Positions 1,637-58,609 are shown, counted from the first letter of the stretch. The stretch is DNA of 64,000 nt from Planctomycetota bacterium (GCA_965223545.1 OZ245006.1:6464001-6528000); one strand, 5' to 3'. Notes: generated from the sequence alone by a model not told the origin. Program-made: numbers and translations.

Positions 1637-3634
1637 TTGGCGCGCATGGCGTGCACCGGCGGCCAGGACAACGGCGACCCGGCGTCGCTCTCGACGTGCG
1701 TCGTCATCGTCAACTACAACGGTTGGCAGGCCGGCGTCGCGTGCCTCGAAAGTGTGTCGTGCTCCACGCACGCGCCGAGTGAGGTCGTCGTCGTCGACAA
1801 CGCGTCGACCGATGGTTCGCTCGATCAGTTGCGCCGGTGGGCGGCGGGGCGTGCGCCTGGTGGCGTCCCGGTGCACTTCTTGGCCAACGACGTCAACCTC
1901 GGCTACGCCGGCGGCGCCAACGCCGGCCTGCGCCATGCCCGAGCGCACGGGTGTGACTTTGCGTGGCTGCTCAACAACGATGTCGTCGTCGCGCCCGATG
2001 CCCTCGGTCACTTGGTTGCTTACGTCGCCGGGCAGGCGTCGCCGCCCGCGATCACCGGCACGATGGTGCGGCTCTTGGCCGAACCCGAGCGAATCCAGTA
2101 CGCGGGCGGTGCGCAGTATCGGCATTGGTGGCCGTACCCGCGCGGCATCGGCGGGGGGGAGCTGGACCGCGGCCAGTACGACGATCTCGACCCTGCGGGC
2201 ATGGCGTACGTGTACGGGGCCTCGATGTTCGTCGACCTCGATTTCGTGACGGCGATCGGCGCGTTGGACGAGCGCTACTTCCTCTACTACGAGGAGCTCG
2301 ACTGGATGGAGCGCATGCGTGACGCCGGTGGGTGGTGTGTGGGCTATTGCCCGCGCGCCGTCGTCTACCACCGTGGCGCCGGATCGATCAATCCCTCCGG
2401 TGAGATCGAGTCCGCGTTGTCCGAGTACTACATCTTTCGCGGCAAGCTGCTGTACACGCGTCGCTACCACGCGCATTGGTTGCCGGTGGCGTGGCTGTTC
2501 GTGGTCAAGCGCATTGTCGGCAACACGGCGCGCGGTCGGTTTCGTCGTGCGCGTGGGCTGATCCCCCTGCTGGTGCGGCCCAGCCGGCGCTGGCGTGGTG
2601 AACGAGATCCGGTGGGATCGCGCGACGTGCAGCCGCGCGTCCTCCTCAGTGGCTTTCACTACCCGCACCACGCCCAGACCTCGGGCTACGATCGGCTGCG
2701 GTTCCACGTGTCCGCGGACTACGTCGACGCCGGCGCTTTGCCGGGTGGCCGCCGGCGGTTCGGCGGCACCGCGCGCCGCGCCAATCTTCTGCTGTCGGAG
2801 GTGGTGGCGAGTCTGCGCGGCCGGCGCTACGACCTCCTCCACACGCTCTACCCCGAGGATCACCCCGGCCTCGGCCAGCTGGTGCGCTCGCCGGCGAAGC
2901 GCGTGGCGACCTTCCATCTGCCGCTCGAGTGGTTTGCCGAGCTCGACCGCTCGCGGGTTCCCACCCACCGACTGCGGGCGCGCGCGTTTCGCCGGTTGGA
3001 CGGCATCATCGTGCTCCGCTCCGCGGACGAAGAACCGGCGAGCGCCGCGTTTCCGCGCGCGCTCGTCCGCTTCATCCCTCACGGTGTCGAGTGGTCGCCA
3101 CGCCTGCCGCCGCGCGCGGGCCGCGAGTTTGCAGTTCTGACCGCCGGCTGCCACGAGCGCGATCTACAGTCCTACCTGGAGATCGTCGATCGCGCCGCCG
3201 CCGCCCACGCCGGCTGGCGCTTCCACCTGGTCGGGGCACCGCCCGAGTGGCGCGACGCCGTGCGCACGCGCGCCAACGTCGTTGGGCACGCCCGCCTCGA
3301 CGACCACGAGTACCGCCGTCTGCTCGCCAGCTGCCGGGCGGCACTGCTGCCTCTGCGCCGCGCGACCGCGAACAACGCGCTGCTCGAAGCCCACGCCGCC
3401 GGCCTGCCAACGGTGGTCCACGATCTGGAGGGCGTGCGCGACTACGCCGTCGAGACCACGGCCCTCTTCGGCGACGCGGCGCAAGCCGTGGCGCAGCTGG
3501 CGCGCCTCGCCGCTCTGTCTCCGACCGCAGCGGCCGAGCAGGCGGCGGCCACGCACCGCGCCGCCGCGCGATTCCGCTGGGAGTCGATCGCCGCGCAAAC
3601 GCGAGCCTTCTACCGCGACATCTGTCGCCACTGA
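1637..3634 (+). CDS. Fused glycosyltransferase, N-terminal GT2 plus C-terminal GT4-like (GT-B) domain
   Basis: GT2 motifs 'VIVNYNG', 'VVDNASTDGS', 'NLGYAGGAN', 'LLNND', 'LDERYFLYYEELDW'. GT4-like 'IPHGV' and 'NALLEAHAAGLPTV'. Start may be ATG 1646. Confidence 0.85.
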   Translation: MARMACTGGQDNGDPASLSTCVVIVNYNGWQAGVACLESVSCSTHAPSEVVVVDNASTDGSLDQLRRWAAGRAPGGVPVHFLANDVNLGYAGGANAGLRHARAHGCDFAWLLNNDVVVAPDALGHLVAYVAGQASPPAITGTMVRLLAEPERIQYAGGAQYRHWWPYPRGIGGGELDRGQYDDLDPAGMAYVYGASMFVDLDFVTAIGALDERYFLYYEELDWMERMRDAGGWCVGYCPRAVVYHRGAGSINPSGEIESALSEYYIFRGKLLYTRRYHAHWLPVAWLFVVKRIVGNTARGRFRRARGLIPLLVRPSRRWRGERDPVGSRDVQPRVLLSGFHYPHHAQTSGYDRLRFHVSADYVDAGALPGGRRRFGGTARRANLLLSEVVASLRGRRYDLLHTLYPEDHPGLGQLVRSPAKRVATFHLPLEWFAELDRSRVPTHRLRARAFRRLDGIIVLRSADEEPASAAFPRALVRFIPHGVEWSPRLPPRAGREFAVLTAGCHERDLQSYLEIVDRAAAAHAGWRFHLVGAPPEWRDAVRTRANVVGHARLDDHEYRRLLASCRAALLPLRRATANNALLEAHAAGLPTVVHDLEGVRDYAVETTALFGDAAQAVAQLARLAALSPTAAAEQAAATHRAAARFRWESIAAQTRAFYRDICRH

Positions 3635-3666
3635 ACGTACGGAGTCCGGCTCGATTTTCTCGCTTC
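3632..3666 (+). repeat. GTAC-palindrome repeat copy 1 (mosaic: type-A left flank, type-B right flank)
   Basis: TGAAC GTAC GGAGTC C GGCTCG A TTTTCTCGCTTC; includes the TGA stop of the upstream glycosyltransferase. Confidence 0.85.
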
Positions 3667-3761
3667 GCCCGGTCGGCACGTCCCGATCGCCGCGCATTCT
3701 CGCGTGCGTCGGGGGGGTGAACGGCAGTTGTGCAGGTGACCTACCCGCAAAGGAGATTGCC

Positions 3762-5819
3762 ATGCGTCCGTTGATCGGCCTTGTTCTGTTCGCCCAAGCC
3801 ATTGGTGGTCCTTGTGTTGCACAAGATCCTCCGGCTCCCCCGGGCGGTTTCGCCGTGCAGGCGCTGCTGGACCAGGACTGGACTTGGTCGGATGGCTATC
3901 GCACGCGCTTCGATCTGCACGTGCCGGCCGTCGCGCCTCCGCCAGGCGGTTGGCCGGCTGTGACCGTACACCACGGTGCCGGCGGCGACCGCAAGCTACC
4001 GGACGTCGTGCGCGCTGCGCGTTACCTCGCCGCGGCGGGATACGTCTGCTACGCCTACGATGGGCGGGACAACGGCCAGACGCCGGCGTTGAACCCGACC
4101 TGGAGCGCGCCCCGAACGCCGGAGCGGATCTTGCTCGACCAGGCGGAGTCGCTGGGCGCGGCGCAGACGTTGATGCCGGGCGCGATCGACGGAGCGCGGT
4201 GGGCGCTGACCGGTTTCTCCGGGGGCGGGCGTCGTTCGCTTTGGGGTGCGGGGTGGTCCGGTCGGTTGCTGCCGTTGGCCGGATCGGTGGCGCACCATCC
4301 GGTGGTGTCCGCGATCGCGCCCGAGATCGCGGTGATCGACATGCCCAACACCGCCGCGCCGGGCTTGGTGCTCGCCGGCGACTTCAAGGTGAAGGGCCTG
4401 CCGCCGACCGACCCGATGATGGTGGCGCTGCAAGCCGGCGACTACCCGTCGTTCGCGGCGGCAGCGGTGACGACGTTCGACCTGCAGGCGGCTGCGCTGC
4501 TGCGGACATCGCTCGTGCCAATGCTCGGCATGTGGGCGCAGCAGGACGTCAAGATCGTCAGTGGGCCGTCGATTCGGGCGTTCATGGCGTTGCCGACGCC
4601 GGCGCCACGGCGCCTGCATCTCTCGACTGGCGGCCACGACACGGTCAAGAACGCGCACGAGCGCGACCTGCAGCAAGATCTGCGCCGACGTTGGTTCGAT
4701 CGCTTCCTCAAGGGGATCCGCAACGGCGTCGAACGCGAACCCGTCGCCGAGCTCGCCGTGCAGCCGACGACCGATGCACGCCACGCGAACTTGGCGACCA
4801 TCTGGGAGCACCGCAATGCCGGCCAGTGGCCGCCGGCGACGCAGACGATCACGGTCCGCAGCTACCTGCGCAGTGGCGGCGTCTTGCACGCCAACGCCCC
4901 GAGCACCGTGGAAGCCGGTCCCCTGCTCCAGCATCGCGTGGCACCGGGCTACGACGCGCTGAGCTACGTCGCGCAGGGCGCCGGCCTGGCGCATGCCTCC
5001 GTGCTGGCGCAGATCCCCATGGTGGCCGCGCGTTTCGATGGAGCACCGTTGCCGGCCGACACCGAGCTTCTCGGCGTTCCGCGGCTGACCCTGCACGTGT
5101 CCGACACAACCGGCCAGGCGCAGCTCACCGCGCGGCTCGGCCACGTCGACCCCGCCGGTCGCGAGACGTGGATCTGCATGGGAACGCACGGCGTGCGTTC
5201 CGCACCGGGCCAGCACACGATCGTCATCGAGCTCGACGATGTGGCGCACGTGATCCCCGCCGGCCACCGCGTTCGGGTCACCGTGCAGAACCTGGCGCTG
5301 CACCAGCCGCCGGCCGCGAGCGGACGCATCCGCTGGGTGCCGTACTTCACCGACACCGACACCACCGTGTTGATGCAGCCGGGGCAAGCAAGCCAACTGG
5401 AGCTGCCGGTGCGCGCCTACCGCGCCAACCTGCTGCCGCGACTGGCGGTGGCCTCGGCCACTGCCGGTGTGGCGCACCGCATGCAACTGCGCGGTGGTGC
5501 AGCGCGCGCCGGTGAGATCTACGCGGCCTTCTTCGGCGCCAGCGGCGAGGCCCCCGGCGTCGCGCTCCCTGGCCTGCCGCCCGCGCCACTGAACCCGGAC
5601 CCGTGGACCAGCGCGGCGATCGCCCTGCAGAACTCCGCCGCGTTCCCCAACACCCTCGGTGTGCTGGACGCGAGCGGCACCGCGACGCCCGGGGTCTACT
5701 TCACGCCGCCCGTGGCCGCGGCCTTGGTCGGGATCCGATTCACCTGCTCCGCCGCCGTCCTCTCCGGCGCGAACATCGAAGCGTTCACCGACGCCACCTC
5801 GCTGGTCATCGACCCATAA
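3762..5819 (+). CDS. Secreted CocE/NonD (peptidase S15/acyl esterase)-like alpha/beta hydrolase with C-terminal module
   Basis: RBS AAGGAG precedes ATG 3762; signal peptide. Motifs 'YLAAAGYVCYAYDGR', nucleophile elbow 'GFSGGG', 'RRWFDRFLKG', PepX_C-like 'LLGVPRLTL...HVIPAGHRVRV'. Confidence 0.8.
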   Translation: MRPLIGLVLFAQAIGGPCVAQDPPAPPGGFAVQALLDQDWTWSDGYRTRFDLHVPAVAPPPGGWPAVTVHHGAGGDRKLPDVVRAARYLAAAGYVCYAYDGRDNGQTPALNPTWSAPRTPERILLDQAESLGAAQTLMPGAIDGARWALTGFSGGGRRSLWGAGWSGRLLPLAGSVAHHPVVSAIAPEIAVIDMPNTAAPGLVLAGDFKVKGLPPTDPMMVALQAGDYPSFAAAAVTTFDLQAAALLRTSLVPMLGMWAQQDVKIVSGPSIRAFMALPTPAPRRLHLSTGGHDTVKNAHERDLQQDLRRRWFDRFLKGIRNGVEREPVAELAVQPTTDARHANLATIWEHRNAGQWPPATQTITVRSYLRSGGVLHANAPSTVEAGPLLQHRVAPGYDALSYVAQGAGLAHASVLAQIPMVAARFDGAPLPADTELLGVPRLTLHVSDTTGQAQLTARLGHVDPAGRETWICMGTHGVRSAPGQHTIVIELDDVAHVIPAGHRVRVTVQNLALHQPPAASGRIRWVPYFTDTDTTVLMQPGQASQLELPVRAYRANLLPRLAVASATAGVAHRMQLRGGAARAGEIYAAFFGASGEAPGVALPGLPPAPLNPDPWTSAAIALQNSAAFPNTLGVLDASGTATPGVYFTPPVAAALVGIRFTCSAAVLSGANIEAFTDATSLVIDP

Positions 5820-5820
5820 C

Positions 5821-5859
5821 GAAAGTACGGAGCCAGGTCAGGCTCCGATTCATCACTTC
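5821..5859 (+). repeat. GTAC-palindrome repeat copy 2 (type A with a 5-nt loop insertion)
   Basis: GAAA GTAC GGAGCC AGGTCA GGCTCC GATTCATCACTTC, immediately after the TAA at 5817-5819. Confidence 0.8.
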
Positions 5860-46315: not shown

Positions 46316-48940
46316 GTGGCCCATCCTCTGATTCGTGCTGGGCTCACCATCGTTGCTGCGTGCTCGTCGCTTTGCGCGCAGGGCGCGGCGCCGCAGTTCG
46401 AGCGCGCCGGCAAGGCCCATCTGCCGGTCGTCTCCACCTTCTCGTTCTCGGGCACCGTCGGCGACGTCGACGGCGACGGATCACCGGACATAGTGGTCGG
46501 CAGCGGCGGCGGCCAGGACGCGCTGTTCCTCAACGACGGCCTCGCTCGATACGCGGATGCGAGCGCGATGCTGCCGCCACCGCCGGGGCAGACGCACGCG
46601 GTGCGCGTCGCGGATGTCGATGGTGACGGTGATGGGGATCTTCTGTTGGGTCGCTACGGCTGGCCCAACACCCTGCTGATCAACCAGGGCGGGCGCGGCT
46701 TTCTCGACGAGTCGGGGATCCGGCTGCCGACCGTGTTCGACCGCACGCAGGATCTCGCGGTGGGCGATGTCGACGGCGACGGCGACCTCGACATCGTCGT
46801 CGCCAATTCGGGCGGCCTGACTCCGGAGAGCAACCGGCTGTATCTCAACGACGGCGCAGGGTTCTTCACCGACGCGACCGCGCGCTTGGTGGGGGTGGCG
46901 GACGAGACCTACGCGATGGTGCTGCGCGATCTCGATGGCGATGGCGACCTCGACCTGGCGTGGGGGAATCGACAGCAGCAGAACCGGCTGCTGCGCAACG
47001 ACGGGTCCGGCACGTTCATCGATGATTCGGCGGCGTTGCCCCCCGACCAGGACTGGTGCGAGGCGATCGAGGCCGCGGACTTCGACGGCGACGGCGATCC
47101 GGACCTGGTGGTGGCGGCGTGCGGCTTCTCGCCGCAGCGCAGCCTGCGTCTCTACCTCAACGACGGCGCCGGACGGTTCACCGATCCCGGCGAGCCGACG
47201 CTGGCGGCGTTCCCCGGCTGTTCGGCGATCGCGGTGGGGGACGTCGACGGGGACGGCGATGTCGATCTCCTCACCGCGGAGAGCTTGACGGAGATGCGCG
47301 TCTTGCTGAACGACGGCGCGGCGCGCTTCGCGTATGGCGCGCGGGTTGGCTTCGACCGCAGCAGCTCGACCTACGACGCGGAGCTGTTCGACGCGGATGC
47401 GGACGGCGACTTGGACGCGCTCGTCGTGCGCAGCTTGGGCCGCGACCGCCTGCTGCTGAACGACGGCCGCGGCGGCTTCGTCGACGGTTGTGTCGCGCCG
47501 GTGCCGGCGGCGTTCGTCGACACCGTCACGGTGGTCGGCGTCGACGTCGACGGAGACGGCGCACTGGATCTGGTCGAGGGCAACGGCCGCCGTTTCGGCC
47601 AGGCCAACCGCCTGCTGCACAACGACGGCACCGGCCGCTTCACCGAGGTCGTGGGGTCGGTCGTCGCCAGCGGGTCGGCGTCGACCCGCTCGCTCGCGGT
47701 GGGCGACGTCGATGGCGATGGCCACTCGGATCTGCTCATCGGTAATGACTGGGATACTCAGGGCCGCGCGCAGAACCGCCTATTGCTGGGGGACGGCCGC
47801 GGCGGCTTCCGCGACGCGACCGCGGCGGCGTTGCCGGTCGCCGACGACCGCACGACGGCGGTGGCCCTCGTCGATCTGGACCGCGACGGAGATCTGGACG
47901 CGCTGTTCGGCAACGTGCTGACCGCGACGTTCGGCCGGACGCTGCAGATCCTCTCCAACGACGGCACCGGCGTGTTCCGCGACGTGACCGCGTCGTGGAT
48001 CTCGAGAACACTCAATGCGATCAACGCGCTCGTGGTCCGCGATCTGGACGGCGATGGCGACCTCGACGTCGCGCTCGCGCACGGTGTGAACACGATCGGC
48101 CTCGCCGATCTGGTCCTCCTGCAGGACGGCGGCCGGTTGATCGCCGCCGCCGCGCTTCCCGCCTCGGTCGAGCCGAGTCTCACGGTGACGGCGGATGACG
48201 TCGATCTCGACGGCGATGTCGATCTCGTCTTCGGCACGGCGCGGGGCACGCGGGGGTCGGCAGCCGATCGGCTCTACCTGAACGATGGCCGGGGTGGGTT
48301 CGAGCTGGCTCCGACGGGATCTCTTCCCCAGGACAGTCTCGGCAGTCAACACCTCGCGCTGGTCGACTTCGACGAGGACCGCGACCCGGACCTGATCCGC
48401 GTGCGGGATGGCGCGTTCAGCGCGACGATCGCCTACTACCGCAACCAAGGAGGACACTTCACCGAGGTTGCCGACCCGGCCCTGCCCGGCACGATCTTGG
48501 GCTACGGCATCGGGGTCGTCGACGTCGACGACGACGGCGACCCGGACGTCGTGGTTCCCGGCGAGCAGCTGGTGCTCCACAACGTCCACCGCCAGCTGAG
48601 TGCGCCCTACGTCGCCATCGCGGGCCGCGACTACGTGCTGCGCGTGCACGTCGAGCCCGGCGTGCTGCCGGGCCCCGCCGTCGCCGTGCCCGTCCTCGCC
48701 GACGGCATCGCGGCCCACCCCCTGCCACCGATCGGAACCCTGAGGCTCGACCCGTTCGGCCAGCTCCTGGTGCTCCGGGGAGTCGTCGTGCCCGCGCTCG
48801 GCCCACCCGCGATCCTGACCCTGCCGCTGCCGCGCACGCCACTGATCCTCGGCGAAGTCCTGCACGCCCAGGCCCTGGTCCTGCGCAGCACTGGGCCCAC
48901 GCGCCTCACCGGCCTCACCACCGATCCCGTCACCCGATGA
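46316..48940 (+). CDS. FG-GAP/VCBS repeat secreted protein with C-terminal module
   Basis: About 14 'D.DGDGD.D...N.L.LNDG.G.F.D' repeats; GTG start with signal peptide inferred. Confidence 0.88.
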   Translation: MAHPLIRAGLTIVAACSSLCAQGAAPQFERAGKAHLPVVSTFSFSGTVGDVDGDGSPDIVVGSGGGQDALFLNDGLARYADASAMLPPPPGQTHAVRVADVDGDGDGDLLLGRYGWPNTLLINQGGRGFLDESGIRLPTVFDRTQDLAVGDVDGDGDLDIVVANSGGLTPESNRLYLNDGAGFFTDATARLVGVADETYAMVLRDLDGDGDLDLAWGNRQQQNRLLRNDGSGTFIDDSAALPPDQDWCEAIEAADFDGDGDPDLVVAACGFSPQRSLRLYLNDGAGRFTDPGEPTLAAFPGCSAIAVGDVDGDGDVDLLTAESLTEMRVLLNDGAARFAYGARVGFDRSSSTYDAELFDADADGDLDALVVRSLGRDRLLLNDGRGGFVDGCVAPVPAAFVDTVTVVGVDVDGDGALDLVEGNGRRFGQANRLLHNDGTGRFTEVVGSVVASGSASTRSLAVGDVDGDGHSDLLIGNDWDTQGRAQNRLLLGDGRGGFRDATAAALPVADDRTTAVALVDLDRDGDLDALFGNVLTATFGRTLQILSNDGTGVFRDVTASWISRTLNAINALVVRDLDGDGDLDVALAHGVNTIGLADLVLLQDGGRLIAAAALPASVEPSLTVTADDVDLDGDVDLVFGTARGTRGSAADRLYLNDGRGGFELAPTGSLPQDSLGSQHLALVDFDEDRDPDLIRVRDGAFSATIAYYRNQGGHFTEVADPALPGTILGYGIGVVDVDDDGDPDVVVPGEQLVLHNVHRQLSAPYVAIAGRDYVLRVHVEPGVLPGPAVAVPVLADGIAAHPLPPIGTLRLDPFGQLLVLRGVVVPALGPPAILTLPLPRTPLILGEVLHAQALVLRSTGPTRLTGLTTDPVTR

Positions 48941-48972
48941 ACGTACGGAGCCAGGCTCCCGTTCATCACTTC
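48937..48972 (+). repeat. GTAC-palindrome repeat copy 3 (type A)
   Basis: ATGAAC GTAC GGAGCC A GGCTCC C GTTCATCACTTC; includes the TGA stop of the upstream gene. Confidence 0.9.
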
Positions 48973-48987
48973 CCCCCGAAAGTCCCC

Positions 48988-49878
48988 TTACTGCCCGATG
49001 CAGGCGAAGCCGTGGTCGAGCAACAGCCTGCTGTCGGCGTAGCGCTGGGCGTTGTCGCTGGATCCCAGCACGCACGCGATGATCGTGCGCCCCGATCGCC
49101 GCGCCGCTGACACCAAGCAGGCCCCGGCGTTGCCAGTGGTTCCGGTCTTGACGCCGATGATCCCCGAATAGCTGCCGTTCTCGACGAAGTCGTTGGTGTT
49201 CGTGATCTCCACGAACCCCTGCCGCGAGGTGTAGACGCCGGTCTTGCCGGTGGCGACGATACCTGCCAGCACCGAGTCCGCGAGCACCGCACGCGCGATC
49301 TGGGTGAGGTCGTAGGCGCTCGCGTAGTGGAGCGTGCTCATCGGCCAGTACGGGTCGCGCCCGTGACAGTTGACGAAGTTGGTATTGCTCAGACCGAGCT
49401 GCAGCACCTTGTTGTTCATCAGCGGCACGAAGTTGCCCTCCGAGAACGCGCAGTGCTCCGCGATCGCCACCGCGGCGTCGTTCCCCGACCGCATCAGCAG
49501 GAAGCGCAGCGCGTTGTAGAACGATAGCTGCTCGCCGTACTGCAAGTTTGCGCTGGATCCGCCGGTCAGCGGCGGCGCCCAACCCACCGTGATCGTGCTA
49601 TAGAGCGACCTGCGCGCCGGGTGTCCCGGTGGCAACTTGGTGAAGTCGCGCGCCACCAGCGCGGTGACCATCTTCGTCGTGCTGGCGTTGGCGCGGCGCG
49701 TGTGCGCGGCCTTGCCCCAAAGCAGCGCACCACTGTCGCCGTCGATCACCGCGGCGCTCGGTGCATCGATCTGCCAGGACCACAGCATCGGGACCTGGAT
49801 CAGGAAAAACTGGGCGGGGACGGAAGCGGCGAGTGCGAACAAGACCGCGGCGGACCGAACGAAGCCAAAAGCTCTCAT
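48988..49878 (-). CDS. D-alanyl-D-alanine carboxypeptidase (peptidase S11)
   Basis: SxxK 'ASTTK', SxN 'SGNDAA', KTG 'VKTGTT'; RBS AGGAG; signal peptide. Confidence 0.92.
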   Translation of the reverse strand: MRAFGFVRSAAVLFALAASVPAQFFLIQVPMLWSWQIDAPSAAVIDGDSGALLWGKAAHTRRANASTTKMVTALVARDFTKLPPGHPARRSLYSTITVGWAPPLTGGSSANLQYGEQLSFYNALRFLLMRSGNDAAVAIAEHCAFSEGNFVPLMNNKVLQLGLSNTNFVNCHGRDPYWPMSTLHYASAYDLTQIARAVLADSVLAGIVATGKTGVYTSRQGFVEITNTNDFVENGSYSGIIGVKTGTTGNAGACLVSAARRSGRTIIACVLGSSDNAQRYADSRLLLDHGFACIGQ

Positions 49879-49954
49879 CTGTGATCTCCTGTGTTGCGGC
49901 GCCACTCAGCGCCTGCCCCCAAGAGATGGTCCTCCCCCCTCTCCGCGTGACGAC

Positions 49955-49986
49955 ACGTACCGAGTCAGACTCGATTTTCTCGCTTC
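49955..49986 (+). repeat. GTAC-palindrome repeat copy 4 (type B)
   Basis: AC GTAC CGAGTC A GACTCG A TTTTCTCGCTTC. Confidence 0.9.
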
Positions 49987-50166
49987 GCCCAGTCCGCGAA
50001 CGCGTTCGCTCCCCGCACGCGTGAGAGTTCCACCCAATTGCGGTGGGGGGCAAGCGGCGCCGCGAGTGGCATTCCAGCCGCGCCTCGGGAGGCCTACGAT
50101 GCATTCGCGCAGGCGGCTTGCGCAGAGCGTCGGTCCGCCGCCCAGCAACCCCGAAGGAGGTGGCCG

Positions 50167-51798
50167 ATGACGCTGAGACTCGTCGACGATCCGAAGGGCA
50201 AGGTCATCTTGTTCTTTCCGATCCTCTGGGACACGCAGTTCCCGCTGTGGCCGCCGTTGTGCTTGTACGCGATCGCGACCTCGCTGCTCCACGCCGGCTA
50301 TGAAGTCGTGCTGATCGACGAACGCGTCGATCCACAGCCGCGCGACAAGCTGCTGGCGGAACTGAGCGACGCCGTGTTCGTCGGCATCTCGGCAAAGGCC
50401 AACGGCCAGTGTCGCAACATGGACCAAGTCGCGCGGCTGGTGAAGCAGCACGCGCCGGAGATGCCAGTCGTGGTCGGTGGGTGGTTCGCGGGCTTGTATC
50501 CGCACCAGACCATCACCGTTCCCTACATCGACGTCGCGATCATCGGGCCGGGAGACGTCGCCGTCCCCGAAGTCGCCGACCGACTGCGAGAGGGGCGGTC
50601 GCTCGAAGGCATCGACAACGTCTTCTTCCGCGCCGGCGGCAAGGTGACGAAGAACCACATCGGGCACCTGCCGCCCATCGAAGAGACTCATCCCATCGAC
50701 TGGGAGCGGATCGGGATCCGGCGCTACATCCACCCGCACGGCTGGCTCAACTACTTCACCTCGAGGGGCTGCCCCGGCGGATGCACGTTCTGCGCCGTGT
50801 ATTGCCTCGACCCCCGCCGGTGGACGGCGCTGCCGGCCGATCGCGTCGTCGACGAAATCGAGGTCTTGACCCGGCGCATCGGGGCGGAGGCGCTGCACAT
50901 CATGGACACCGACTTCTGCGCGAACCTGAACCGGGTCGAGCAGATTTGTCGGGGGATCCTCGAACGCGGGATCAAGGTGCGCTTCAACATCCTCGGTCGC
51001 CACTACACGATCCGGAGAATGTCCGACGAGCAGCTGCGCCTGCTGCGGCTGGCCGGCTGCAACGAAGTCGAAGTCGGCCTCGAGACCGGGTCCCAGCGCC
51101 TTTCCGACGCGATCAACAAGCAATGCGACGTGGAGGAATTTCCGGCTACCGTGCGTCGCTTCGTGGCGGCCGGTATCCGCATGCGAATCAATGCCATGCT
51201 GGCGATTCCCAGCGAAACGCGAGAAGACCTCGCCGCCACGTTCCGCATCCTGCTCGGCCTGCGCGACCTCGGCAACCGGGCCATTCGCGTGCAGATGTTC
51301 CGGTTCACGCCGTTTCCCGACGTGCCCGCCGGCAAGGAAGTCCTCAAGATGACCCGCCGTGGCCACGTCGGCCGCGAGACGTTGACCTATGACGAGCTGC
51401 TGAACTTCCCCGTCGACAACGACGACACGTCGATGTTCTGGTTGTCCGAGCAGCACGAGTCGGACGTGCGACGGGCGTACGAGTTCTACGCGCCCCTCTT
51501 GTTCTACAAGAACTCCTTCGACACGGCGCGCGGCCGCCCGATTTGGCGCCGGGTCTTGCGGCTCTTCGAGCGCACTGCTGCCTGGCGCGTCGCCCGGGGC
51601 GACTACCGTTTGCCGGTGGAGCTCTGGCTCAATCGCTGGTTTGGCCGGCCCATGCCGCGCGGGGCAGACGAGGGGATCTCGCCCGCCGCGGACCAGCTGC
51701 CCGTGCCGCCCGAGATGGGGCAGACGCTCGACCTCTCTCCGCCGCTGCCGATCCCCGACCGGACGGGGACGGGACACCGGTCGGCGGTGGCGCCGTGA
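50167..51798 (+). CDS. B12-binding domain radical SAM protein
   Basis: RBS AAGGAGG; 'PPLCLYAIATSL', 'VVVGGW', CxxxCxxC 'SRGCPGGCTFC', 'GLETGS'. Confidence 0.9.
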   Translation: MTLRLVDDPKGKVILFFPILWDTQFPLWPPLCLYAIATSLLHAGYEVVLIDERVDPQPRDKLLAELSDAVFVGISAKANGQCRNMDQVARLVKQHAPEMPVVVGGWFAGLYPHQTITVPYIDVAIIGPGDVAVPEVADRLREGRSLEGIDNVFFRAGGKVTKNHIGHLPPIEETHPIDWERIGIRRYIHPHGWLNYFTSRGCPGGCTFCAVYCLDPRRWTALPADRVVDEIEVLTRRIGAEALHIMDTDFCANLNRVEQICRGILERGIKVRFNILGRHYTIRRMSDEQLRLLRLAGCNEVEVGLETGSQRLSDAINKQCDVEEFPATVRRFVAAGIRMRINAMLAIPSETREDLAATFRILLGLRDLGNRAIRVQMFRFTPFPDVPAGKEVLKMTRRGHVGRETLTYDELLNFPVDNDDTSMFWLSEQHESDVRRAYEFYAPLLFYKNSFDTARGRPIWRRVLRLFERTAAWRVARGDYRLPVELWLNRWFGRPMPRGADEGISPAADQLPVPPEMGQTLDLSPPLPIPDRTGTGHRSAVAP

Positions 51799-52367
51799 TC
51801 CATCGCGGTCTCGAAGACCTCGCGGTTGCGCGCCTCCTGCGCAGCAACTTCGAGGCAATCCAAGCCGAGATCGATGCGGTGCCCCGCGCGTGCTTCGAGC
51901 TGTGGCCGCAGCCGGAGTACGCAGGCAGCTGGCGAATGATGCCGCTGAAGTTCGATGACCGTCCCGATGGCTTTGTCCGCACGCCCGAGAGCAACCGGGA
52001 GGTCGTGCCCGTGACCTGGCGCCTGCTCGCGGTGGCGCCGGGCCTGATGCGGGCCGTGGTGTCCCTGTTGGGGCCGCAGACGCACGTTGCTCCGCACACC
52101 GGTGTGATGGACCCCCCGCCGTTCCGCATCCATTTCGCGCTGCGCGTCCCCGACGCGGCCGGCCTTCGCGTGTTGGAGGAGCGGCTGCGTCCGGTCCCCG
52201 GGGAACCGATCGGCTTCGACCCGCGCCTCGAGCACGAAGCTGCCAACATGTCGACGACCGAAGACCGCCTCATCCTGGTCGTTGACGTTCGACTGACCGG
52301 TGCGCTGGCTGCCAAGTACTTGACCGGTGGATCGGCCAAGGGCAATCCGTGGACGTCTCCATCCTGA
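51795..52367 (+). CDS. Aspartyl/asparaginyl beta-hydroxylase-domain protein
   Basis: GTGA overlap with the upstream stop; 'NFEAIQAE', 'SLLGPQTHVAPHTG', 'RIHFAL', 'FD...EHEAAN', 'DRLILVVD'. Confidence 0.82.
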   Translation: MIHRGLEDLAVARLLRSNFEAIQAEIDAVPRACFELWPQPEYAGSWRMMPLKFDDRPDGFVRTPESNREVVPVTWRLLAVAPGLMRAVVSLLGPQTHVAPHTGVMDPPPFRIHFALRVPDAAGLRVLEERLRPVPGEPIGFDPRLEHEAANMSTTEDRLILVVDVRLTGALAAKYLTGGSAKGNPWTSPS

Positions 52368-53566
52368 TCGTCAACTACCGCACGTGGGGTCACTGCGCGG
52401 AGGCTCTCGAATCGATCGCGCTCCACCCGCCGGACGGCTCCCGCTCGCGGAACGCGGTGGAATCGCGGGCCGCCGGCAGTGCGGGGCTGCGCTACGAAGT
52501 CGTCGTCGTCGACAATGCGTCGCCACCGCCGCCGCCGCTGGTGCGAGCGCGCTTCGAGCGCGCGCTCGCATCGGTCGGCGGTCGCTTGATTCGAAGCGCG
52601 GAAAACATCGGTTATGCACGCGCGGCAAACCTGGCGTGCCGCGCGACGACGGGGCGGTGCGTCGTCGTGAGCAATGCTGACGTCATCTTTCAGAAGCGGA
52701 CGATCGGCGTGCTGGTCGACTACTTGCTTCGGCATCGCGACGCCGGAGCGGTGGGCCCGGAAGTGTTCTGGGATGACTCGCAGACCTGCCGCATGCCCGA
52801 CAACTTCTTGCCGGCAGCACGCCACCAGTTGTACGAGCTCGCGATGCGCGCAAGTCCCCGCCTGGAGCGCCGCTTTGCCCGGCGCACGTTGCGGCGCCAG
52901 CTGGCGCTCTGGCAGTCGCGGACGCCGACCGACGTCGACATGCTGACCGGGTGTTGTCTCGCGCTGCGGCGGGACGTGATCGATGCGATCGGGCTGTTCG
53001 ACGAGCAGTTTCCGTTGTTCCTCGAGGACGCGGACCTCGCGATGCGCCTGCGGCGCGAAGGATTGCGCAGCGTGGTCGTGAAGCCGTCGACCCTGGTCCA
53101 CAAGTTCAGCCGCTCGGTCGGGATGGACCCGGAAACAGCGATGGCGAAGTACTGGACCAGCTTGCGGCGCTATCACGCCAAGTGGCATGGCCGCCTCGGC
53201 ATCGCATCGGGACGGGTCTACCGGAGTCTGACCGAGCGTTGGCAGCGAGCGGGCTCCTCGACCGGCCCGCCGCCCTGGGTCGTGGACATCGAGTCCGCGG
53301 CCAAGCCGGTGCTGAACCTGCCGCGGCACTGCGCCAGCTACTGCGTGCAGGTCGCGGTCGAGCCGAGCTTTCAGGCCATGTCCGGCGTACTGGGTTCCGG
53401 CGACTCGTGGACTCCCGACGACTCCTTGTTCGCCCGGTTCGGCCAGCGCGCGTGGTTTCGTGTGTTCGATCTCTCCTCCGGATCGCCGACCGTACTCCGT
53501 GCATATCGCTTCACCCGCAGCGACAACGGGACCCGTGGTCTGGCGGCGTCGCAACCAAGGCGGTAG
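52349..53566 (+). CDS. Glycosyltransferase family 2
   Basis: 'SILIVNY', 'VVVDNAS', 'NIGYARAAN', 'FDEQFPLFLEDADL'. Confidence 0.9.
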   Translation: MDVSILIVNYRTWGHCAEALESIALHPPDGSRSRNAVESRAAGSAGLRYEVVVVDNASPPPPPLVRARFERALASVGGRLIRSAENIGYARAANLACRATTGRCVVVSNADVIFQKRTIGVLVDYLLRHRDAGAVGPEVFWDDSQTCRMPDNFLPAARHQLYELAMRASPRLERRFARRTLRRQLALWQSRTPTDVDMLTGCCLALRRDVIDAIGLFDEQFPLFLEDADLAMRLRREGLRSVVVKPSTLVHKFSRSVGMDPETAMAKYWTSLRRYHAKWHGRLGIASGRVYRSLTERWQRAGSSTGPPPWVVDIESAAKPVLNLPRHCASYCVQVAVEPSFQAMSGVLGSGDSWTPDDSLFARFGQRAWFRVFDLSSGSPTVLRAYRFTRSDNGTRGLAASQPRR

Positions 53567-53578
53567 GGCAGAGTCGGC

Positions 53579-56011
53579 ATGGGCGACCGCGTGATCACGG
53601 CGAGGGCGCGGGTGCGGGGATGGCACGCCCTCGCGGCGTCTGTGCTCGTCGCTCTCGCCGTGCTCTTCGTGCTGTGGGAAGCGCTGTTCTGCGACGCGTT
53701 ACTGCTCAGCTTCGACAACCGCCTCGTGCCTCCGTTTCGCGTCCACGTCGAGGCGGGAGAACCGGCGCGCCCGATGAACATGGTCACCGGTGACGTCAAT
53801 GCCTACTACGCGCCGGAGACCATGATCAGCGTCACTCGGCTGCGGGCGGGCGAGGTGCCGTTGTGGAACGAACACCAGCTCATGGGGCAGCCGCAGCTCG
53901 CCAGCATGGGCTTCGCGGTGTTCTATCCGACCTGTCCTCTGTTTCTGATCCTCGACCCCCTGCGCGCGTACGCGGTTTCGGTTGCGCTGCACCTCGTGCT
54001 TCTCGGCGTCGGTGTGTGGTGGCTCTGTCGGTCTCACAACCTGTCGTTCGCCGCCGCGCTGCTGGGTGCGTTGGGGGCCATGTTCTCCGCGTTCTCCGTT
54101 CTCCACGTCCACCTGCCCGGCTTCCTGTACGCGTTCGCGTGGTTGCCGTGGATCGTGCTCGCCGCCGAGAGGCTTGCCCGAGCACCGAGCCGCCGCGCGG
54201 TGGGCGTTCTCGCGTCGGTTCTCGCACTTTGCCTGCTCGCCGGCTGCCCGCAGATCGCGGCGATCTCGGCGTACGCGGCGGCCGTGGCGTTCTTGGTGGC
54301 GGCGCCGCGCGTGCACGCCGTTGCTGCGGCGCTGGTTGCCGGTGTGCTCGGCTGCGTTGCTGCCGCTGTCTTGCTGCTGCCGGGTCTCGAGCTCTACCAA
54401 GCATCGACCCGCGCGGTGTCCGAGCTCGCCGCTCTGCACTCGGCCGAATCGCTCGAGCCGCCCGCTCTGGTCGGATTCGTCCTGCCACATGCGTTCGGCC
54501 ATCCGGTGCAGGAGGTCAGCGTCGTGCATGCCGACGCCCGCAGGGTGGAGTCGTTCCCGTCGAATCGGTGGCTGTCGCCGGATGACGAGAACAACATGAT
54601 CGACAATGCGACGTACTTCGGCGTGATTCCGTTCGCGCTGGCGTTGCTCGCCCTGCCGCGTCGTCGCAACCTGGCATACACCGCGCTCTTCTCGGTCTCG
54701 TTGCTGGCGGCGCTGGGTGTACCGTGGCTGGCGGCCGGGATCGGCGTGCTGCCAGGAGTGGGGGTTGGCAGCCCCAAACGCGTGCTGTGCGTCACGGCAT
54801 TTGCGGGCGCGGTACTCGCCGCATCGACGCTGGATCGGCTGCAACGAGGTGGGGCGAACGGGCGTGCCCTGGCGATCCTCGGTGTCGGGTTTCTGTTGTT
54901 GTCGGGGATCGCGCTGTTTCCGTTCGAGCAGTGGCTGTTCAGCAGCCTTGCCGAGGACGAGCAGCGTTGGTTTCGCTCGACGCTGGTGGCGGACCTGACG
55001 CGTCTGGCCGCGGCAGGCGTCGTTCTGGTCGCCGCCTGGTGGCTGTGCCGCGCCAACCGCGGAGCCGTGGCCGTGGGCGTGCTGCTGATCGGCAGTGCCG
55101 CCGAGCTGACCAGCTATGCCCGTGCCACCAATCCGGCGCAGCGCCGGACGGGGCAGTACGACGCGACTTCCGCGATCGAGTGGATGCGGGCAAACGATGC
55201 GCGCTACGTGTCGTTCGATCTGACCGAGGCGCTGCCGGCGTGCGTTGTCCAGGTGTTCGGTCTGCGCTCGTGCAATGGCTACTACCCGCTGCTGGGGCGT
55301 GAGTCTTACGAGCTACTCGCGGCGCTCGAGCCGGGCTTGATCCGCAACGGCACGCGGGTCGTCGGTGCCGTGCGCGAGCTCGCCACGCTGTCGTCGCCGC
55401 TGTTGGACCTCTTCGGTGTGCGCTACGTCGCGACGAGCGTGAACGGACACAATCGGCTGCGGGCGGCCGGGTGGACGCCCAGCTATGTCGGGGAGCGAGA
55501 GCGACTCGCCATCTACGTGCGCCCGACCGCGTTGCAGCCCGCGTTCCTCGTTGCCCGCGTCTCGTCAATGAGCGATCGCGATGCGCGGCTGCGGCGGTTG
55601 TGTGCTCTCGACTTCGTGCCCGGTGAGGAAGCGCTCGTGGAGCAGCCGATCTCGCACCCGCGGTCCGGCCTCGTCCAAGGACCGGTGCACTACACGCGGG
55701 TCGGGCCCGAGCGCATCCTTCTCGATGTCGCGGTGGACGGCCCGGCCTTCGTCGTCGTATCGGAGACCTTTGCCCCCGGGTGGCAGGCGACAGTGGACGG
55801 CCAACCGGCGCCGCTGCTGCGCACGGATCACGCGTTGATGGGCGTGCCGCTACCTGCCGGAGCGCGCCGCGTCGAGATCTCCTACCGACCCGCGTCGTTC
55901 ACGCTGGGTGCGGTGTTGTCCGTCCTCGGGCTGCTCGCCTGCGCGTGGCTGTCGTGGTGGCGTCGCGACACCGTTCATCAGTCGCCGGGCGACAGCAGGT
56001 CGGTGAAGTAG
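53579..56011 (+). CDS. YfhO-family polytopic membrane protein (GT-C-like)
   Basis: 'GEVPLWNEHQLMGQP', 'FYP', many transmembrane helices, C-terminal 'VVSETFAPGWQATVDG...GVPLPAG'. Confidence 0.88.
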   Translation: MGDRVITARARVRGWHALAASVLVALAVLFVLWEALFCDALLLSFDNRLVPPFRVHVEAGEPARPMNMVTGDVNAYYAPETMISVTRLRAGEVPLWNEHQLMGQPQLASMGFAVFYPTCPLFLILDPLRAYAVSVALHLVLLGVGVWWLCRSHNLSFAAALLGALGAMFSAFSVLHVHLPGFLYAFAWLPWIVLAAERLARAPSRRAVGVLASVLALCLLAGCPQIAAISAYAAAVAFLVAAPRVHAVAAALVAGVLGCVAAAVLLLPGLELYQASTRAVSELAALHSAESLEPPALVGFVLPHAFGHPVQEVSVVHADARRVESFPSNRWLSPDDENNMIDNATYFGVIPFALALLALPRRRNLAYTALFSVSLLAALGVPWLAAGIGVLPGVGVGSPKRVLCVTAFAGAVLAASTLDRLQRGGANGRALAILGVGFLLLSGIALFPFEQWLFSSLAEDEQRWFRSTLVADLTRLAAAGVVLVAAWWLCRANRGAVAVGVLLIGSAAELTSYARATNPAQRRTGQYDATSAIEWMRANDARYVSFDLTEALPACVVQVFGLRSCNGYYPLLGRESYELLAALEPGLIRNGTRVVGAVRELATLSSPLLDLFGVRYVATSVNGHNRLRAAGWTPSYVGERERLAIYVRPTALQPAFLVARVSSMSDRDARLRRLCALDFVPGEEALVEQPISHPRSGLVQGPVHYTRVGPERILLDVAVDGPAFVVVSETFAPGWQATVDGQPAPLLRTDHALMGVPLPAGARRVEISYRPASFTLGAVLSVLGLLACAWLSWWRRDTVHQSPGDSRSVK

Positions 56012-57090
56012 CCGACGAACAACGGCGTGCGGGCGTCGGGGCGGCAAACGTGCACGCTGGCATCCTCCGCGGATAGCAGCAGCAGGTGCGGTCCTTTGGC
56101 CGCGGGAGAAGTCGCGATGGCGAACGGAGTGCACGCCGCAGGAATCGCAGCGTCGATCCTACTGAGATGCGCGGCCTCGATCTGCGTGCGCTCGGAGCTG
56201 GGCAGCCGCGACCAGCAGAACACCAGGAGCGAAACCTCGACCTGCGCTTTGCCCAGCGGCAGCAGGCCGGCGGGGGCGCGAAACCGCGCGCCGTGCAGCT
56301 TGGCTACGATCGACTGCGCGTGGATCGCTTGTCGGCGGACGAAGTTGCGGTCGCCGGCGGTCGATGGCATCCAGCGGACGGAGGGCTGCAATCCGGTGTC
56401 GTCGCCGGTGTGCCGGCGGTCGAGCGCGTAGTAGTACACCGCGATGCTGTTTCGGCGGCGGTCGCGCGGGCAGCGCAAGGGCTGCGGGTGGCCGTGGAAA
56501 GACCGCGTTCCGGTTTCGAACAACACGGCGCGGTTGGCGACCGGGAGGATCCGTGCGCACGGCGCGCTTGCCTCGCTCCAGAACTCCAGATGGCCGCCGT
56601 ACTCCTCCCGCCAGTCGCGGTTGAGGAACAGGATGAAGTTCAACACCTGGTGTAGGCGGTGGGCGCTGTGGGGGTGGCGGTTGGTGTCGGTGTGGACCAT
56701 CAATCTGCCGTCGCGCCCCGTGCTGTGTAGACCGCACCCGTTGAAGGTGGGGTCGACGATGATGTGGTCGATGCCGGTCAACTTCTCGAGAAACGCGACA
56801 AACGTCGCCGAGACCAACTGACCGAGAAAGTGTCGTGTGAAAGGCCCGAGGTCCGTCTCCCGAGAACGCCCGAGCTTGTGCACGCTCGTGGGATGCGGCC
56901 CCCACTGCGTCCATCGCGCATCGTCCGCCGGCGGGAACTCCCCGATCAGTTGATCGAGAATGCTTGCCGGCACGAAGTCGTCGACCACGACATGGGGAAA
57001 GGGTGCAGCCGCACCAAACTCATCAGCGCGCGCGCTCGCGATCCCATCGAGCCGCAGCTCGTCGAAGTAGAACGCCGGAATCTGCCCCAT
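55978..57090 (-). CDS. 2OG-Fe(II) oxygenase
   Basis: 'PFPHVVVDDF', HxD 'VHTD', 'FLNRDWREEYGGHLEFW', 'SFHG', 'RNSIAVYYY'. Confidence 0.88.
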   Translation of the reverse strand: MGQIPAFYFDELRLDGIASARADEFGAAAPFPHVVVDDFVPASILDQLIGEFPPADDARWTQWGPHPTSVHKLGRSRETDLGPFTRHFLGQLVSATFVAFLEKLTGIDHIIVDPTFNGCGLHSTGRDGRLMVHTDTNRHPHSAHRLHQVLNFILFLNRDWREEYGGHLEFWSEASAPCARILPVANRAVLFETGTRSFHGHPQPLRCPRDRRRNSIAVYYYALDRRHTGDDTGLQPSVRWMPSTAGDRNFVRRQAIHAQSIVAKLHGARFRAPAGLLPLGKAQVEVSLLVFCWSRLPSSERTQIEAAHLSRIDAAIPAACTPFAIATSPAAKGPHLLLLSAEDASVHVCRPDARTPLFVGYFTDLLSPGD

Positions 57091-57111
57091 CGCACTCCAA
57101 TCCTACCGTCC

Positions 57112-57148
57112 GCGAGAAGTACCGAGTCAGACTCGATTTTCTCGCTTC
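57112..57148 (+). repeat. GTAC-palindrome repeat copy 5 (type B)
   Basis: GCGAGAA GTAC CGAGTC A GACTCG A TTTTCTCGCTTC; outer arms GCGAGAA/TTCTCGC also pair. Confidence 0.9.
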
Positions 57149-57184
57149 CCCGCCCCCCGCCCCACACTCCGCCGCCCGATCCGG

Positions 57185-58552
57185 CTATCGGATCAAATGC
57201 CAGCGCGTCTGCCGGCCACCGATATAGCGGACCTGCCGCCCGTCGAACCACGCATCCTGCTCGAGCTTGATCTGCACCCACTGGTCATCCCACTCCGGCA
57301 GCTGCACGCGCACGTTGCCTTCGATCGCGTAGCAGGTGTCGGCCCGAAGCTGCCAATCCCCGCGCACCGGAGTCGGGCCCTGGTTGTCCCACATGCCGAT
57401 GGTCGGGCCCGCAGCGTGGCCGTGGAAGCCGAGCGGGTGTGTGTAGACCGCGCACTCGATCCCCTCCCAAGCACACTCCGAGAGAGTCGTCGCCAAGATC
57501 TTGTTGCCGGTGCTCCCTTCGACGAACGCGCTGGTCAACACGTCCTGCCACCGGTTGCCCACCGCCATCGCCTGCGCGAGTCCCGGCGGCACGTCGGCTT
57601 CGTCCGGCCGCAGCACGTACGCCATCTCTTGCGTATCCGTGCACAACCGCAGATAGCGGATGCCGACGTCGGTGTGCAGCACATCGCCGCGTTGGATGAC
57701 GGTGTCTTGGATGCCGAAGATCGCGGTCTCCGGATCCGCAGCCGCACCCCGGCGCTGCACGTTGCAGTGGGGCTGGAACCACACCGGTAGGCCCAGATCG
57801 GTGAAGCGCTGGCGCAGCCACCACCTCACGTCCTCGGTGGTCGTCACGCCCGGCGTGATCACGTCGTTGGAGAACGCCTCGGCGATCACCCCGCGCGCGA
57901 GCTGCACGATCTGCGGGTAGATCTCGAGCTCGGTCGGCGACCGCGTTTCCAACCACCGGATGCAGAGCTCCTCGGCCGACACCAGCCGCTCCGACAGCGC
58001 ACCGAGCGCCGCGACCAACCGCGCTCGAAGGCCGCTGCTCAAGCCGTCGCCGAACGCCCAGTGCTCGCTCGTGTCGACACCGATCCGCTGCGGCGCGCGC
58101 GCCGCGACGAGCTGCCGCAGTTGCTCCCACTGGGCATCGCCGGTGCCGCCCTCCCACGCGCTCTCGTACAGATCTCCCAACCCGTAGCGGCTGACCGTCA
58201 GCCGTTCGACCCCTTCGTCCGGGCCGCGGTCGTAGAACAGCAGGATCGTGGTCCGCCGCGCCGCGAACACCGGCTCCGGCACGAGCGTCAGATACACCGG
58301 ATCTTCGTTGTACTCGCGGTTGATCACGAGCCACATGTCGAGGCCCGCCTCGCGCATCAGGCCCGGCAGCAGCAGGTCCAACCGTTCGCGGAGAATGCGG
58401 TTGGCCGCCGCGGCGCGCGCGCGCTCGTCCAGGATGGCAGGAGGGCGGGGCACCGCGTAGCCCTGGTCCCAAGGGACCTGCGCGGCCTGCGCGAGCGCTC
58501 CGGTCGAAGCGGTGAAGAACATGGCAACAAGCAGGGGCAGAACCGATCGCAT
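57185..58552 (-). CDS. M24 family (Xaa-Pro aminopeptidase-like) metallopeptidase, secreted
   Basis: 'REYNEDPV', 'PGVTTTEDV', 'GDVLHTDVG...TDTQ', 'HPLGFHGH', 'AIE', 'LEQD'; signal peptide from ATG 58552. Confidence 0.88.
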   Translation of the reverse strand: MRSVLPLLVAMFFTASTGALAQAAQVPWDQGYAVPRPPAILDERARAAAANRILRERLDLLLPGLMREAGLDMWLVINREYNEDPVYLTLVPEPVFAARRTTILLFYDRGPDEGVERLTVSRYGLGDLYESAWEGGTGDAQWEQLRQLVAARAPQRIGVDTSEHWAFGDGLSSGLRARLVAALGALSERLVSAEELCIRWLETRSPTELEIYPQIVQLARGVIAEAFSNDVITPGVTTTEDVRWWLRQRFTDLGLPVWFQPHCNVQRRGAAADPETAIFGIQDTVIQRGDVLHTDVGIRYLRLCTDTQEMAYVLRPDEADVPPGLAQAMAVGNRWQDVLTSAFVEGSTGNKILATTLSECAWEGIECAVYTHPLGFHGHAAGPTIGMWDNQGPTPVRGDWQLRADTCYAIEGNVRVQLPEWDDQWVQIKLEQDAWFDGRQVRYIGGRQTRWHLIR

Positions 58553-58573
58553 AGTCACCAACTTAGCCGTTCC

Positions 58574-58609
58574 GTGAACGTACGGAGCCAGGCTCCTGTT
58601 CATCACTTC
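58574..58609 (+). repeat. GTAC-palindrome repeat copy 6 (type A)
   Basis: GTGAAC GTAC GGAGCC A GGCTCC T GTTCATCACTTC. Confidence 0.9.

Follow-up and report, generated by a model that had tools for sequence, protein, structure and literature searches.

The window analysed here, a 64,000-nucleotide stretch of a Planctomycetota genome (G000:C1:6464001-6528000, G000 being the genome under study), contains six copies of a short repeat that opens with GTAC. The copies belong to two families, A and B, and form three pairs, each enclosing one predicted gene. We consider it very probable that A and B are dispersed families resembling repetitive extragenic palindromic (REP) sequences. Each family additionally supplies the inverted ends of one Y1-HUH transposase gene, whose product likely cleaves and rejoins the hairpin of that family in single-stranded DNA, seeding copies, and the pairs in the window are likely independent insertions on either side of ordinary genes. 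The features of the locus, in window coordinates, are:

3632-3666, + strand: family B repeat with a 5-nt leader and GTAC at 3637; its inner stem is mismatched
3762-5819, + strand: S15/CocE-like hydrolase gene, 685 aa (PepX_C/CocE-like S15)
5820-5859, + strand: family A repeat with GTAC at 5825, 5 nt past the hydrolase stop
5837-5841, + strand: 5 extra nt in the loop of this A copy, equal to the final 5 nt of the insertion sequence (IS) IS110 that targets family A
48938-48972, + strand: family A repeat with GTAC at 48943, in a convergent gap; inner and outer stems fold
48988-49878, - strand: Peptidase_S11 carboxypeptidase gene, 296 aa
49952-49986, + strand: family B repeat with GTAC at 49957, in a divergent gap
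57112-57148, + strand: family B repeat with GTAC at 57119 and an outer stem of 7 bp
57185-58552, - strand: Peptidase_M24 gene, 455 aa
58575-58609, + strand: family A repeat with GTAC at 58580

All six GTAC sites (3637, 5825, 48943, 49957, 57119 and 58580) are intergenic and on the + strand, in agreement with an earlier account based on the window sequence only (the sequence-only reading), and each pair encloses one predicted gene whose N-terminus, judged by eye, resembles a signal peptide. Three copies adjoin stop codons, as described, beginning 2, 5 and 2 nt after the stop; the TGA stop of the upstream glycosyltransferase is overlapped by the B repeat at 3632-3666, and that of an FG-GAP gene by the A repeat at 48938-48972. 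The three A+B pairs around one gene are real, but their layout varies (B-gene(+)-A, A-gene(-)-B and B-gene(-)-A). Likewise, the consensus given for the two types fits four of the six copies but not 3637 (B, with a mismatched stem) or 5825 (A, with the 5 extra nt), and the co-varying outer stem folds in 48943, 57119 and 58580 but not in the other three. The B copy at 3637 folds no better than its shuffles (z +1.6). The arms had been called fully compensatory, which holds for a minority: the inner 5-bp stem is perfect in only 20 of 128 B copies, versus 98 of 115 A copies. Six repeat loci per 64 kb is at the top of the range, since only 3 of 126 bins of this size hold six or more.

A scan of the whole chromosome that tolerated five substitutions gave 237 matches, versus none in the control (one strand of the reversed chromosome), so the repeat is not a chance family. 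The matches comprise 108 A and 129 B copies, and their tetranucleotide is GTAC in 231 and GTAG in one. The common strand of the window copies is a local feature: genome-wide, 115 matches are on the + strand and 122 on the - strand. Together with core matches, IS-split copies and scarred copies, the scan matches make up 268 sites: 128 B, 115 A, 22 IS-split A and three scarred A, giving a family A total of 140. These sites form 212 loci (165 singlets, 42 pairs, one triple and four quadruples). The arrangements include singlets, 28 inverted doublets, 17 double-foot palindromes with GTAC at both ends, each entered as two sites, and tandems, some of them directly abutting B-A.

The placement of the sites is strongly biased with respect to genes. 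Deep intragenic sites number only 5 of 268, and the occupied gaps are convergent in 95 of 201 cases, versus 454 of 3689 in the background. A same-strand predicted stop codon lies -1 to 7 nt from the start of 118 of the 268 sites. The leader is complementary to the element's own tail (run of at least 4) in 24 of 48 A copies, versus 7 in a distal control, and in 37 of 93 B copies, versus 23; this complementarity is a loose form of the outer stem mentioned above. Related palindromic spacers are common to A and B doublets (G000:C1:2813339, 5081176, 6975198 and 7722994), which suggests exchange between both families.

The proposal that these REP-like hairpins are tied to HUH-Y1 enzymes encoded outside the window was borne out, as both enzymes were found. 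A profile search of the genome with PF01797 (Y1_Tnp) gave 14 matches, two of which are full-domain genes scoring above the cut-off. Their products, named RAYT1 and RAYT2 (REP-associated tyrosine transposases), are ~45% identical to each other. RAYT1 (G000:C1:1729868) lies between inverted B copies at 1729787 (+) and 1730915 (-). Its frame reads through the 3' B copy without a stop and stays open on the antisense strand of the neighbouring gene, and RAYT1 may be impaired. The gene has a xerD-like gene upstream and a uvrC-like gene on the other side (G000:C1:1728882-1730915), both named by sequence alone. RAYT2 (C1:3914532-3915533, 333 aa) lies between inverted A copies (A+ and A-), each split by IS110, and its stop codon is supplied by its 3' A copy. 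RAYT2 is more likely to be the active enzyme because RAYT1 has no stop before its 3' B copy.

THFH, FRGRF and YIDHNP are present in both enzymes, with the class 2 Y---NP motif, and H60, H62, Y119 and N123 are invariant across 10 sequences. A helix-turn-helix (HTH) match to Sigma70_r4_2 near residues 270-300 is found in both but is weak (E 2e-4, below cut-off); the Bac_DnaA_C, HTH_23 and HTH_28 profiles gave no match to the C-terminal tail, and the NF047646 match of the enzymes is below its cut-off. The AlphaFold model of RAYT2 (pLDDT 84) has helices at 267-311, and its best structure match is E. coli TnpA-REP (4ER8, E 3.6e-7), followed by the IS608 and ISDra2 transposases. The other 12 PF01797 genes (G000:C1:1355010, 1632801, 2260328 and nine more) are near-identical, shorter and without GTAC flanks. 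They have a common upstream end, differing downstream flanks and a Y---QN motif, and represent an IS200-like element unrelated to the GTAC repeats.

The link between enzyme and repeat extends to related bacteria. Of 40 related genomes, 12 encode relatives of RAYT2, and a scan of a larger genome collection gave 341 relatives, the best 80 of which are nearly all from Planctomycetota. Ten of these 80 were left out for short flanks. At the 70 loci analysed, an inverted repeat (score of at least 14) surrounds the gene in 58, versus 6 of 150 cross-locus controls, and the motif TAC-N-G-W-R-Y is found on both sides of the gene in 47, versus none of 70 inside the gene. The first four repeat bases across the clade are ATAC in 51, GTAC in 39 and another tetranucleotide in 4 cases (n=94). 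The gene-flanking ends of the relatives are also dispersed families of their own, with 104 matches in G028, 10 in its congener G036, 58 in G011, 88 in G001 and 24 in G018; the G028 family consists mostly of doublets. The pattern of each relative's family has 0-1 matches in G000, and the G000 pattern, with 231 matches in G000, has 7 in G033 and 0-2 in each of the other 39 genomes. A pattern search of G023 gave no match, the ends in G023 being different, and the exact B pattern was found at no locus in metagenome contigs. None of the 40 relatives is a congener of G000.

The more similar two enzymes are, the more similar their repeats tend to be (Mantel r 0.47; 0 of 2,000 permutations), although the kin are not independent, which inflates r. 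In a protein tree of 47 rows, consisting of 45 of the 51 supplied loci together with RAYT1 and RAYT2, the two enzymes are sisters with 94/87 support. Given this correlation and the sister relationship, we conclude that A and B have diverged from each other as the ends of two sister enzymes.

We propose that the HUH enzymes, through H60/H62, Y119 and the C-terminal HTH, would bind the hairpin and cleave near its 5' foot, with the GTAC guide selecting GA or GT by the published guide rule. When the guide of a REP was changed from GTAG to GTAC, cleavage took place at GA and GT in vitro (Corneloup et al., PMC8266576). In G000, 112 of 140 A sites have GA at -4, and 97 of 128 B sites have it within -5 to -2, versus 18.6% of 14,045 other GTAC sites. 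Such a GA target preference would explain the overlap with TGA stops. A clade-wide rule of GA at -4 was considered and is ruled out by the leaders of G011 and by the ATAC/GTAC split.

Insertion would occur preferentially on the lagging-strand template at replication forks, the target reported for IS608 and ISDra2. With the origin set by GC skew and dnaA at 4.02 Mb, 65 of 93 B singlets have GTAC on the strand that serves as the lagging-strand template (P 1.6e-4). The bias holds in tandem, convergent and divergent gaps, and the genes themselves are barely biased (3002 of 5701). Copies would then survive where they are harmless or useful, at gene 3' ends.

Some doublets may form on site when a singlet is copied, together with its flank, by fold-back. 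The inversion reaches at least 11 nt into the flank in 8 of 28 inverted doublets, one of which is a B-A composite. The remaining 7 of 27 mirror 11-20 nt of unique flank (G000:C1:2214969, 1534933, 6675428, 2516971, 5274460, 6975198 and 6605846), whereas random same-type pairs have such flank inversion in ~0.1% of cases for A and never in the sample for B. The mirrored flanks suggest that singlets were duplicated locally by fold-back; alternatively, copies may have inserted into hairpins that were already present. Mirroring beyond the conserved leader was found in none of 21 doublets of G028, G036, G011 and G001. REPINs are known to include double-foot forms and to have unique spacers that are palindromic (PMC3337134, PMC3116915).

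Several observations weigh against this account. The lagging-strand bias of A singlets (43 of 72) is not significant (P 0.12). The leaders of the G011 family are TTGCC-type, without GA; the core that is constant in the clade is TAC, without the initial G; and positions -1, -2 and -5 of the A leader change together with subtype, so the leader is partly inherited with the element. For these three reasons the GA rule is a prediction only. The gene calls that underlie the placement analysis come from our own codon-score script (5,724 genes), and the element boundaries are approximate because no clean empty site from a close strain is available; in-genome paralog alignments give rough boundaries only. 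The same side of the balance includes an excess of A/B pairs around single genes. Same-strand pairs of this kind number five genome-wide, versus 0.87-1.0 expected under random placement in matched gap classes (P 0.002-0.003). One of the two pairs outside the window brackets a 34% paralog of the window S15 gene in the same B-gene-A order, and GGTCGG occurs in the tail of only the two B copies that bracket these S15 paralogs. Finally, the closest S15 homolog (51%, in G018; L048:1430-1445) carries that genome's own RAYT-associated repeat after its stop, with no match at its start.

These last points bear on the interpretation originally offered for the window, in which same-strand A and B copies are the ends of a mobile single-gene unit. 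The bracketing of both S15 paralogs, together with the common B tail, is the best evidence for it: the two S15-bracketing B copies have 8 tail nt in common, and at least 8 tail bases are shared by 146 of 4278 pairs of B singlets. B comes first in four of the five pairs, and the directly abutting B-A tandems might be taken for empty sites. The best paralog of a gene with a 3' repeat carries such a repeat itself in 14 of 103 cases, versus 5 of 122 for controls. Even so, we consider this interpretation unlikely. Three of the five pairs prompted the idea, and outside the window the two pairs compare with 0.87-0.97 expected (P 0.21-0.26 for three bin sizes); in one of the two, which consists of tandem 90% paralogs, B lies 5 nt past one stop codon and A 5 nt past the other. 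When only the type labels are shuffled, the pair count gives P 0.09. Order and gene orientation vary among the pairs, and each transposase gene is flanked by one repeat type in inverted orientation, which is at odds with A and B being the two ends of one unit. Nor does the pairing extend through the genome: copies are for the most part unpaired (165 of 212 loci are singlets), an outcome that the sequence-only reading had itself set against the idea, and only 10 of the 268 sites lie in same-strand A/B single-gene pairs.

The bracketed genes and their homologs point in the same direction. Repeat type mostly differs between the partners of the listed paralog pairs, which points to separate insertions, and we read the recurrence as certain gene ends attracting or keeping repeats independently. 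The window S11 gene has a 66% paralog elsewhere in the genome that is free of repeats on both sides; a candidate decayed B copy upstream of this paralog was rejected, its score of 13/30 being the modal background score. M24 homologs (49-72%) occur in 4 of 40 relatives, and the repeat motif matches neither the start nor the end of any of them. S11 homologs were not found in the 40 relatives at 1e-30 with the window S11 as query, and in none of 18 homolog loci does the motif match at both gene ends. The neighbours of the window genes do not appear among the matches listed beside 4 M24 or 14 S15 homolog loci (1.5-kb flanks, >35% identity), which is uninformative because the genera differ. The GC content at third codon positions is ordinary for the five bracketed genes (16th-59th percentile), with the window S15 gene (3762-5819) at the 28th percentile and typical of the genome. 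By a crude heuristic, signal-peptide-like starts are not enriched beside repeats (56 of 277 and 21 of 125, versus 1036 of 5701). A joint that removes a bracketed gene was not among the 15 of 102 joints listed from contigs of four sequencing runs (window 47500-60000), assembled contigs being prone to drop rare variants. These runs, from a single study, contain the window and are possibly its source; no RNA run with the window was listed. An apparent excision on one X4 contig, where 8 different letters connect A at 48969 and B at 49955 and the depth is single-copy, corresponds to a genomic A-B tandem at C1:7905806 and was rejected.

The preference of copies for stop codons and convergent gaps likely explains the pairs around genes. 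The three gene-bracketing pairs of the window are probably a coincidence rather than mobile gene cassettes, with the S15, S11 and M24 genes likely bystanders between repeats. A bolder version seems to us improbable: sister HTH-tailed RAYTs with naturally re-programmed GTAC guides, cutting at GA on the lagging-strand template, would use chance same-strand B/A copies as hybrid ends to lift and re-insert one gene. If this were true, hybrid B/A ends would turn a REP-like system into a single-gene shuffling device, with the S15 paralogs as its traces.

The A copy at 5825 differs from its family by its loop, and the difference leads to the IS110 element that splits both ends of RAYT2. The element is 1.65 kb long and has 23 full copies that are 99.5-100% identical (for example, G000:C1:3912820-3914468). 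It encodes a DEDD recombinase matching NF033542 with 248 bits, versus a cut-off of 140. The left junction reads GGAGC or CGAGC, the left half of the A core, in all 23 copies, one of them in a reversed A, and the right half of A is found at the other junction in 22. The insertion point is the CAG loop of A, including both RAYT2 ends. In the 265-nt left end, 7-nt target-left and 8-nt donor-left candidate guide matches are found; the right guides are not fixed, and an Rfam search of this end gave no match above the gathering score. Tandem copies at G000:C1:4826219-4829694 have the same left flank and one atypical right junction, possibly an IS-mediated duplication.

The right end of the element closes with CAG-GT-CAG, and in three A copies, drawn from two or more tail subtypes, CAG-GT-CAG stands between the left and the right arm (C1:6469825, which is window position 5825, 6715180 and 7558365). 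The 5 extra nt at 5837-5841 are therefore likely a scar of imprecise IS110 excision, a reading drawn from the matching sequence. Recombination of the left core with the subterminal CAG would give exactly the CAG-GT-CAG form. A bridge-RNA IS110 would thus use the A loop as its target and sometimes leave a 5-nt scar. ISPpu9 mutants recombined at alternative AG cores (PMC12288879), and excision of IS621 is rare but real (PMC13626964); the words scar, footprint and imprecise do not occur in the available text of either source. A circle joint over the IS110-RAYT2 stretch was found in none of the contigs of four sequencing runs, which is uninformative because contigs drop rare forms.

The uniform position of the 23 near-identical copies, all at the CAG loop of an A-type sequence, and the candidate target and donor guide segments in the left non-coding end could suggest that the repeats owe their origin, their spread or the recombination between them to the bridge recombinase rather than to the RAYTs. 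We regard this as highly improbable, as none of the 23 copies is in family B, which is equally abundant, and IS110 elements that target existing REPs are known (PMC12288879, PMC13626964). It is also very unlikely that the repeats are host regulatory hairpins, namely terminators or stabilizers of mRNA 3' ends kept by selection, with a secondary link to transposases. The strong placement at stop codons and convergent gaps and the long perfect hairpins formed by doublets are consistent with such a role. However, the families are restricted to particular lineages, and in each genome they match the ends of its own RAYT gene. The orientation of B copies is tied to the replichore in tandem, convergent and divergent gaps alike, while genes are barely biased, and most B inner stems are imperfect. 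An RNA role as the reason why repeats are retained is compatible with the transposase-based explanation; it is as an account of their origin and spread that it becomes a rival. Integron-like attC sites, in which gene and repeat form a cassette handled by a tyrosine recombinase, would fit the AAC...GTT symmetry and stop-codon overlap of A and the xerD-like gene directly upstream of RAYT1. This origin is barely credible and is largely refuted by the absence of cassette arrays, as the sites are scattered on both strands and often lie between convergent genes; in addition, the repeat of ~35 bp is shorter than attC sites, and the enzymes between the inverted repeats belong to the HUH-Y1 type.

The finding makes a weak case for a gene-cassette system. 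Its significance lies in a Planctomycetota clade of subclass 2.1 / Group 1 enzymes (see below), each with a matched repeat family that can reach >100 sites. How RAYTs spread REP-type repeats is called unresolved in PMC8266576, and the B replichore bias and the mirrored doublet flanks are usable clues to the spreading pathway. The natural enzyme-repeat pairs can be used for testing specificity, the role of the HTH tail and the GTAC selection of GA or GT. The putative IS110 scars would be traces, in a natural genome, of a bridge recombinase excising its element imprecisely.

Other repeated sequences were noted in passing. A large PKD/Ig-domain protein is encoded at window 38522-45490 (-), with about eight near-identical 249-bp repeats at 40823-43108, and the region of this gene is flanked by a 163-nt inverted repeat (77%) at 38565-38727 and 45973-46135, 7.2 kb apart. 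Elsewhere, near-identical protein-search matches in two distant regions (G000:C1:2581069-2586731 and 4631503-4637168) suggest a segmental duplication.

Among known systems, the one described here works like REP-RAYT and shows the TIRtron features tested; it is neither a canonical GTAG REP nor an IS605-type cargo element. TIRtrons and their TIRYT enzymes correspond to TnpA-Y1 subclass 2.1 (Quentin et al. 2018, PMC6006769, where the subclass is equated with the TIRYTs of Di Nocera et al. 2013, PMC3733652) and to RAYT Group 1 (Bertels et al. 2017). We assigned RAYT1 and RAYT2 to subclass 2.1 by the motifs in Table 1 of PMC6006769. As in TIRtrons, a Y1-HUH gene lies between inverted terminal repeats (TIRs), which are also dispersed as singles, dimers and clusters. 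As in subclass 2.1, the enzymes have Y---NP, FRGRF replacing W/FQ, a conserved serine after the core and a long C-terminal HTH. Compared by consensus rather than with individual TIR sequences, the TIR consensus GGGGWSAS agrees with the B core GGAGTCAG in 7 of its 8 positions and with the A core GGAGCCAG in 6; the exact GGGGWSAS form flanks the gene of one relative (L021). Unlike in TIRtrons, the families are large, with 128 (B) and 140 (A) sites. TIR families are called moderately abundant by Di Nocera (PMC3733652), subclass 2.1 is described as having no REP-like sequences nearby by Quentin (PMC6006769), the mean flanking 16-mer count of Group 1 is 12 (Bertels, 10.1101/119735), and Group 1 has been described as having lost duplication activity (10.1101/2021.07.10.451892). 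The repeats also differ from those of TIRtrons in opening with a conserved RTAC and forming a bulged hairpin, and the enzymes, from a Planctomycetota clade, are ~330 aa long, versus a median of 238 in subclass 2.1. Our search turned up just the two founding papers on TIRYTs and TIRtrons and, including a query for Planctomycetota, REP and transposase since 2018, no literature on this enzyme-repeat clade; most subscription papers lay outside the search, as did some figures and supplements, which may contain related sequences.

The resemblance to REP/REPIN-RAYT systems (the GTAG REPs of E. coli, Pseudomonas and Stenotrophomonas; subclasses 2.2 and 2.5) lies in the tetranucleotide 5' of a short hairpin, the hundreds of extragenic copies, the single family per enzyme, the sites downstream of genes, the doublets with palindromic spacers, the double-foot palindromes and the targeting by IS110. 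In contrast, the tetranucleotide is GTAC/ATAC rather than GTAG/GTGG, singlets (165 of 212 loci) rather than inverted doublets dominate, the enzyme is twice as long with an HTH tail, and 7 of 27 doublets mirror 11-20 nt of unique flank. With IS200/IS605 the system has in common the HUH-Y1 fold, a presumed single-strand hairpin recognition by analogy and, for B only, the lagging-strand-template bias. It differs in having inverted same-type ends instead of same-strand left and right ends, Y---NP instead of Y---Q, and single-copy enzyme genes. The IS110 element resembles the REP-targeting IS621 and ISPpu9 in its long left non-coding end, its fixed insertion point in a palindromic repeat and the short core repeated at both ends; unlike in those cases, the target is a TIR-type repeat, and three targets keep a 5-nt remnant of the right end of the IS. 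What is unusual here is thus the high copy number for the subclass, the lagging-strand bias of B, the flank-mirroring doublets and the restriction of IS110 to family A.

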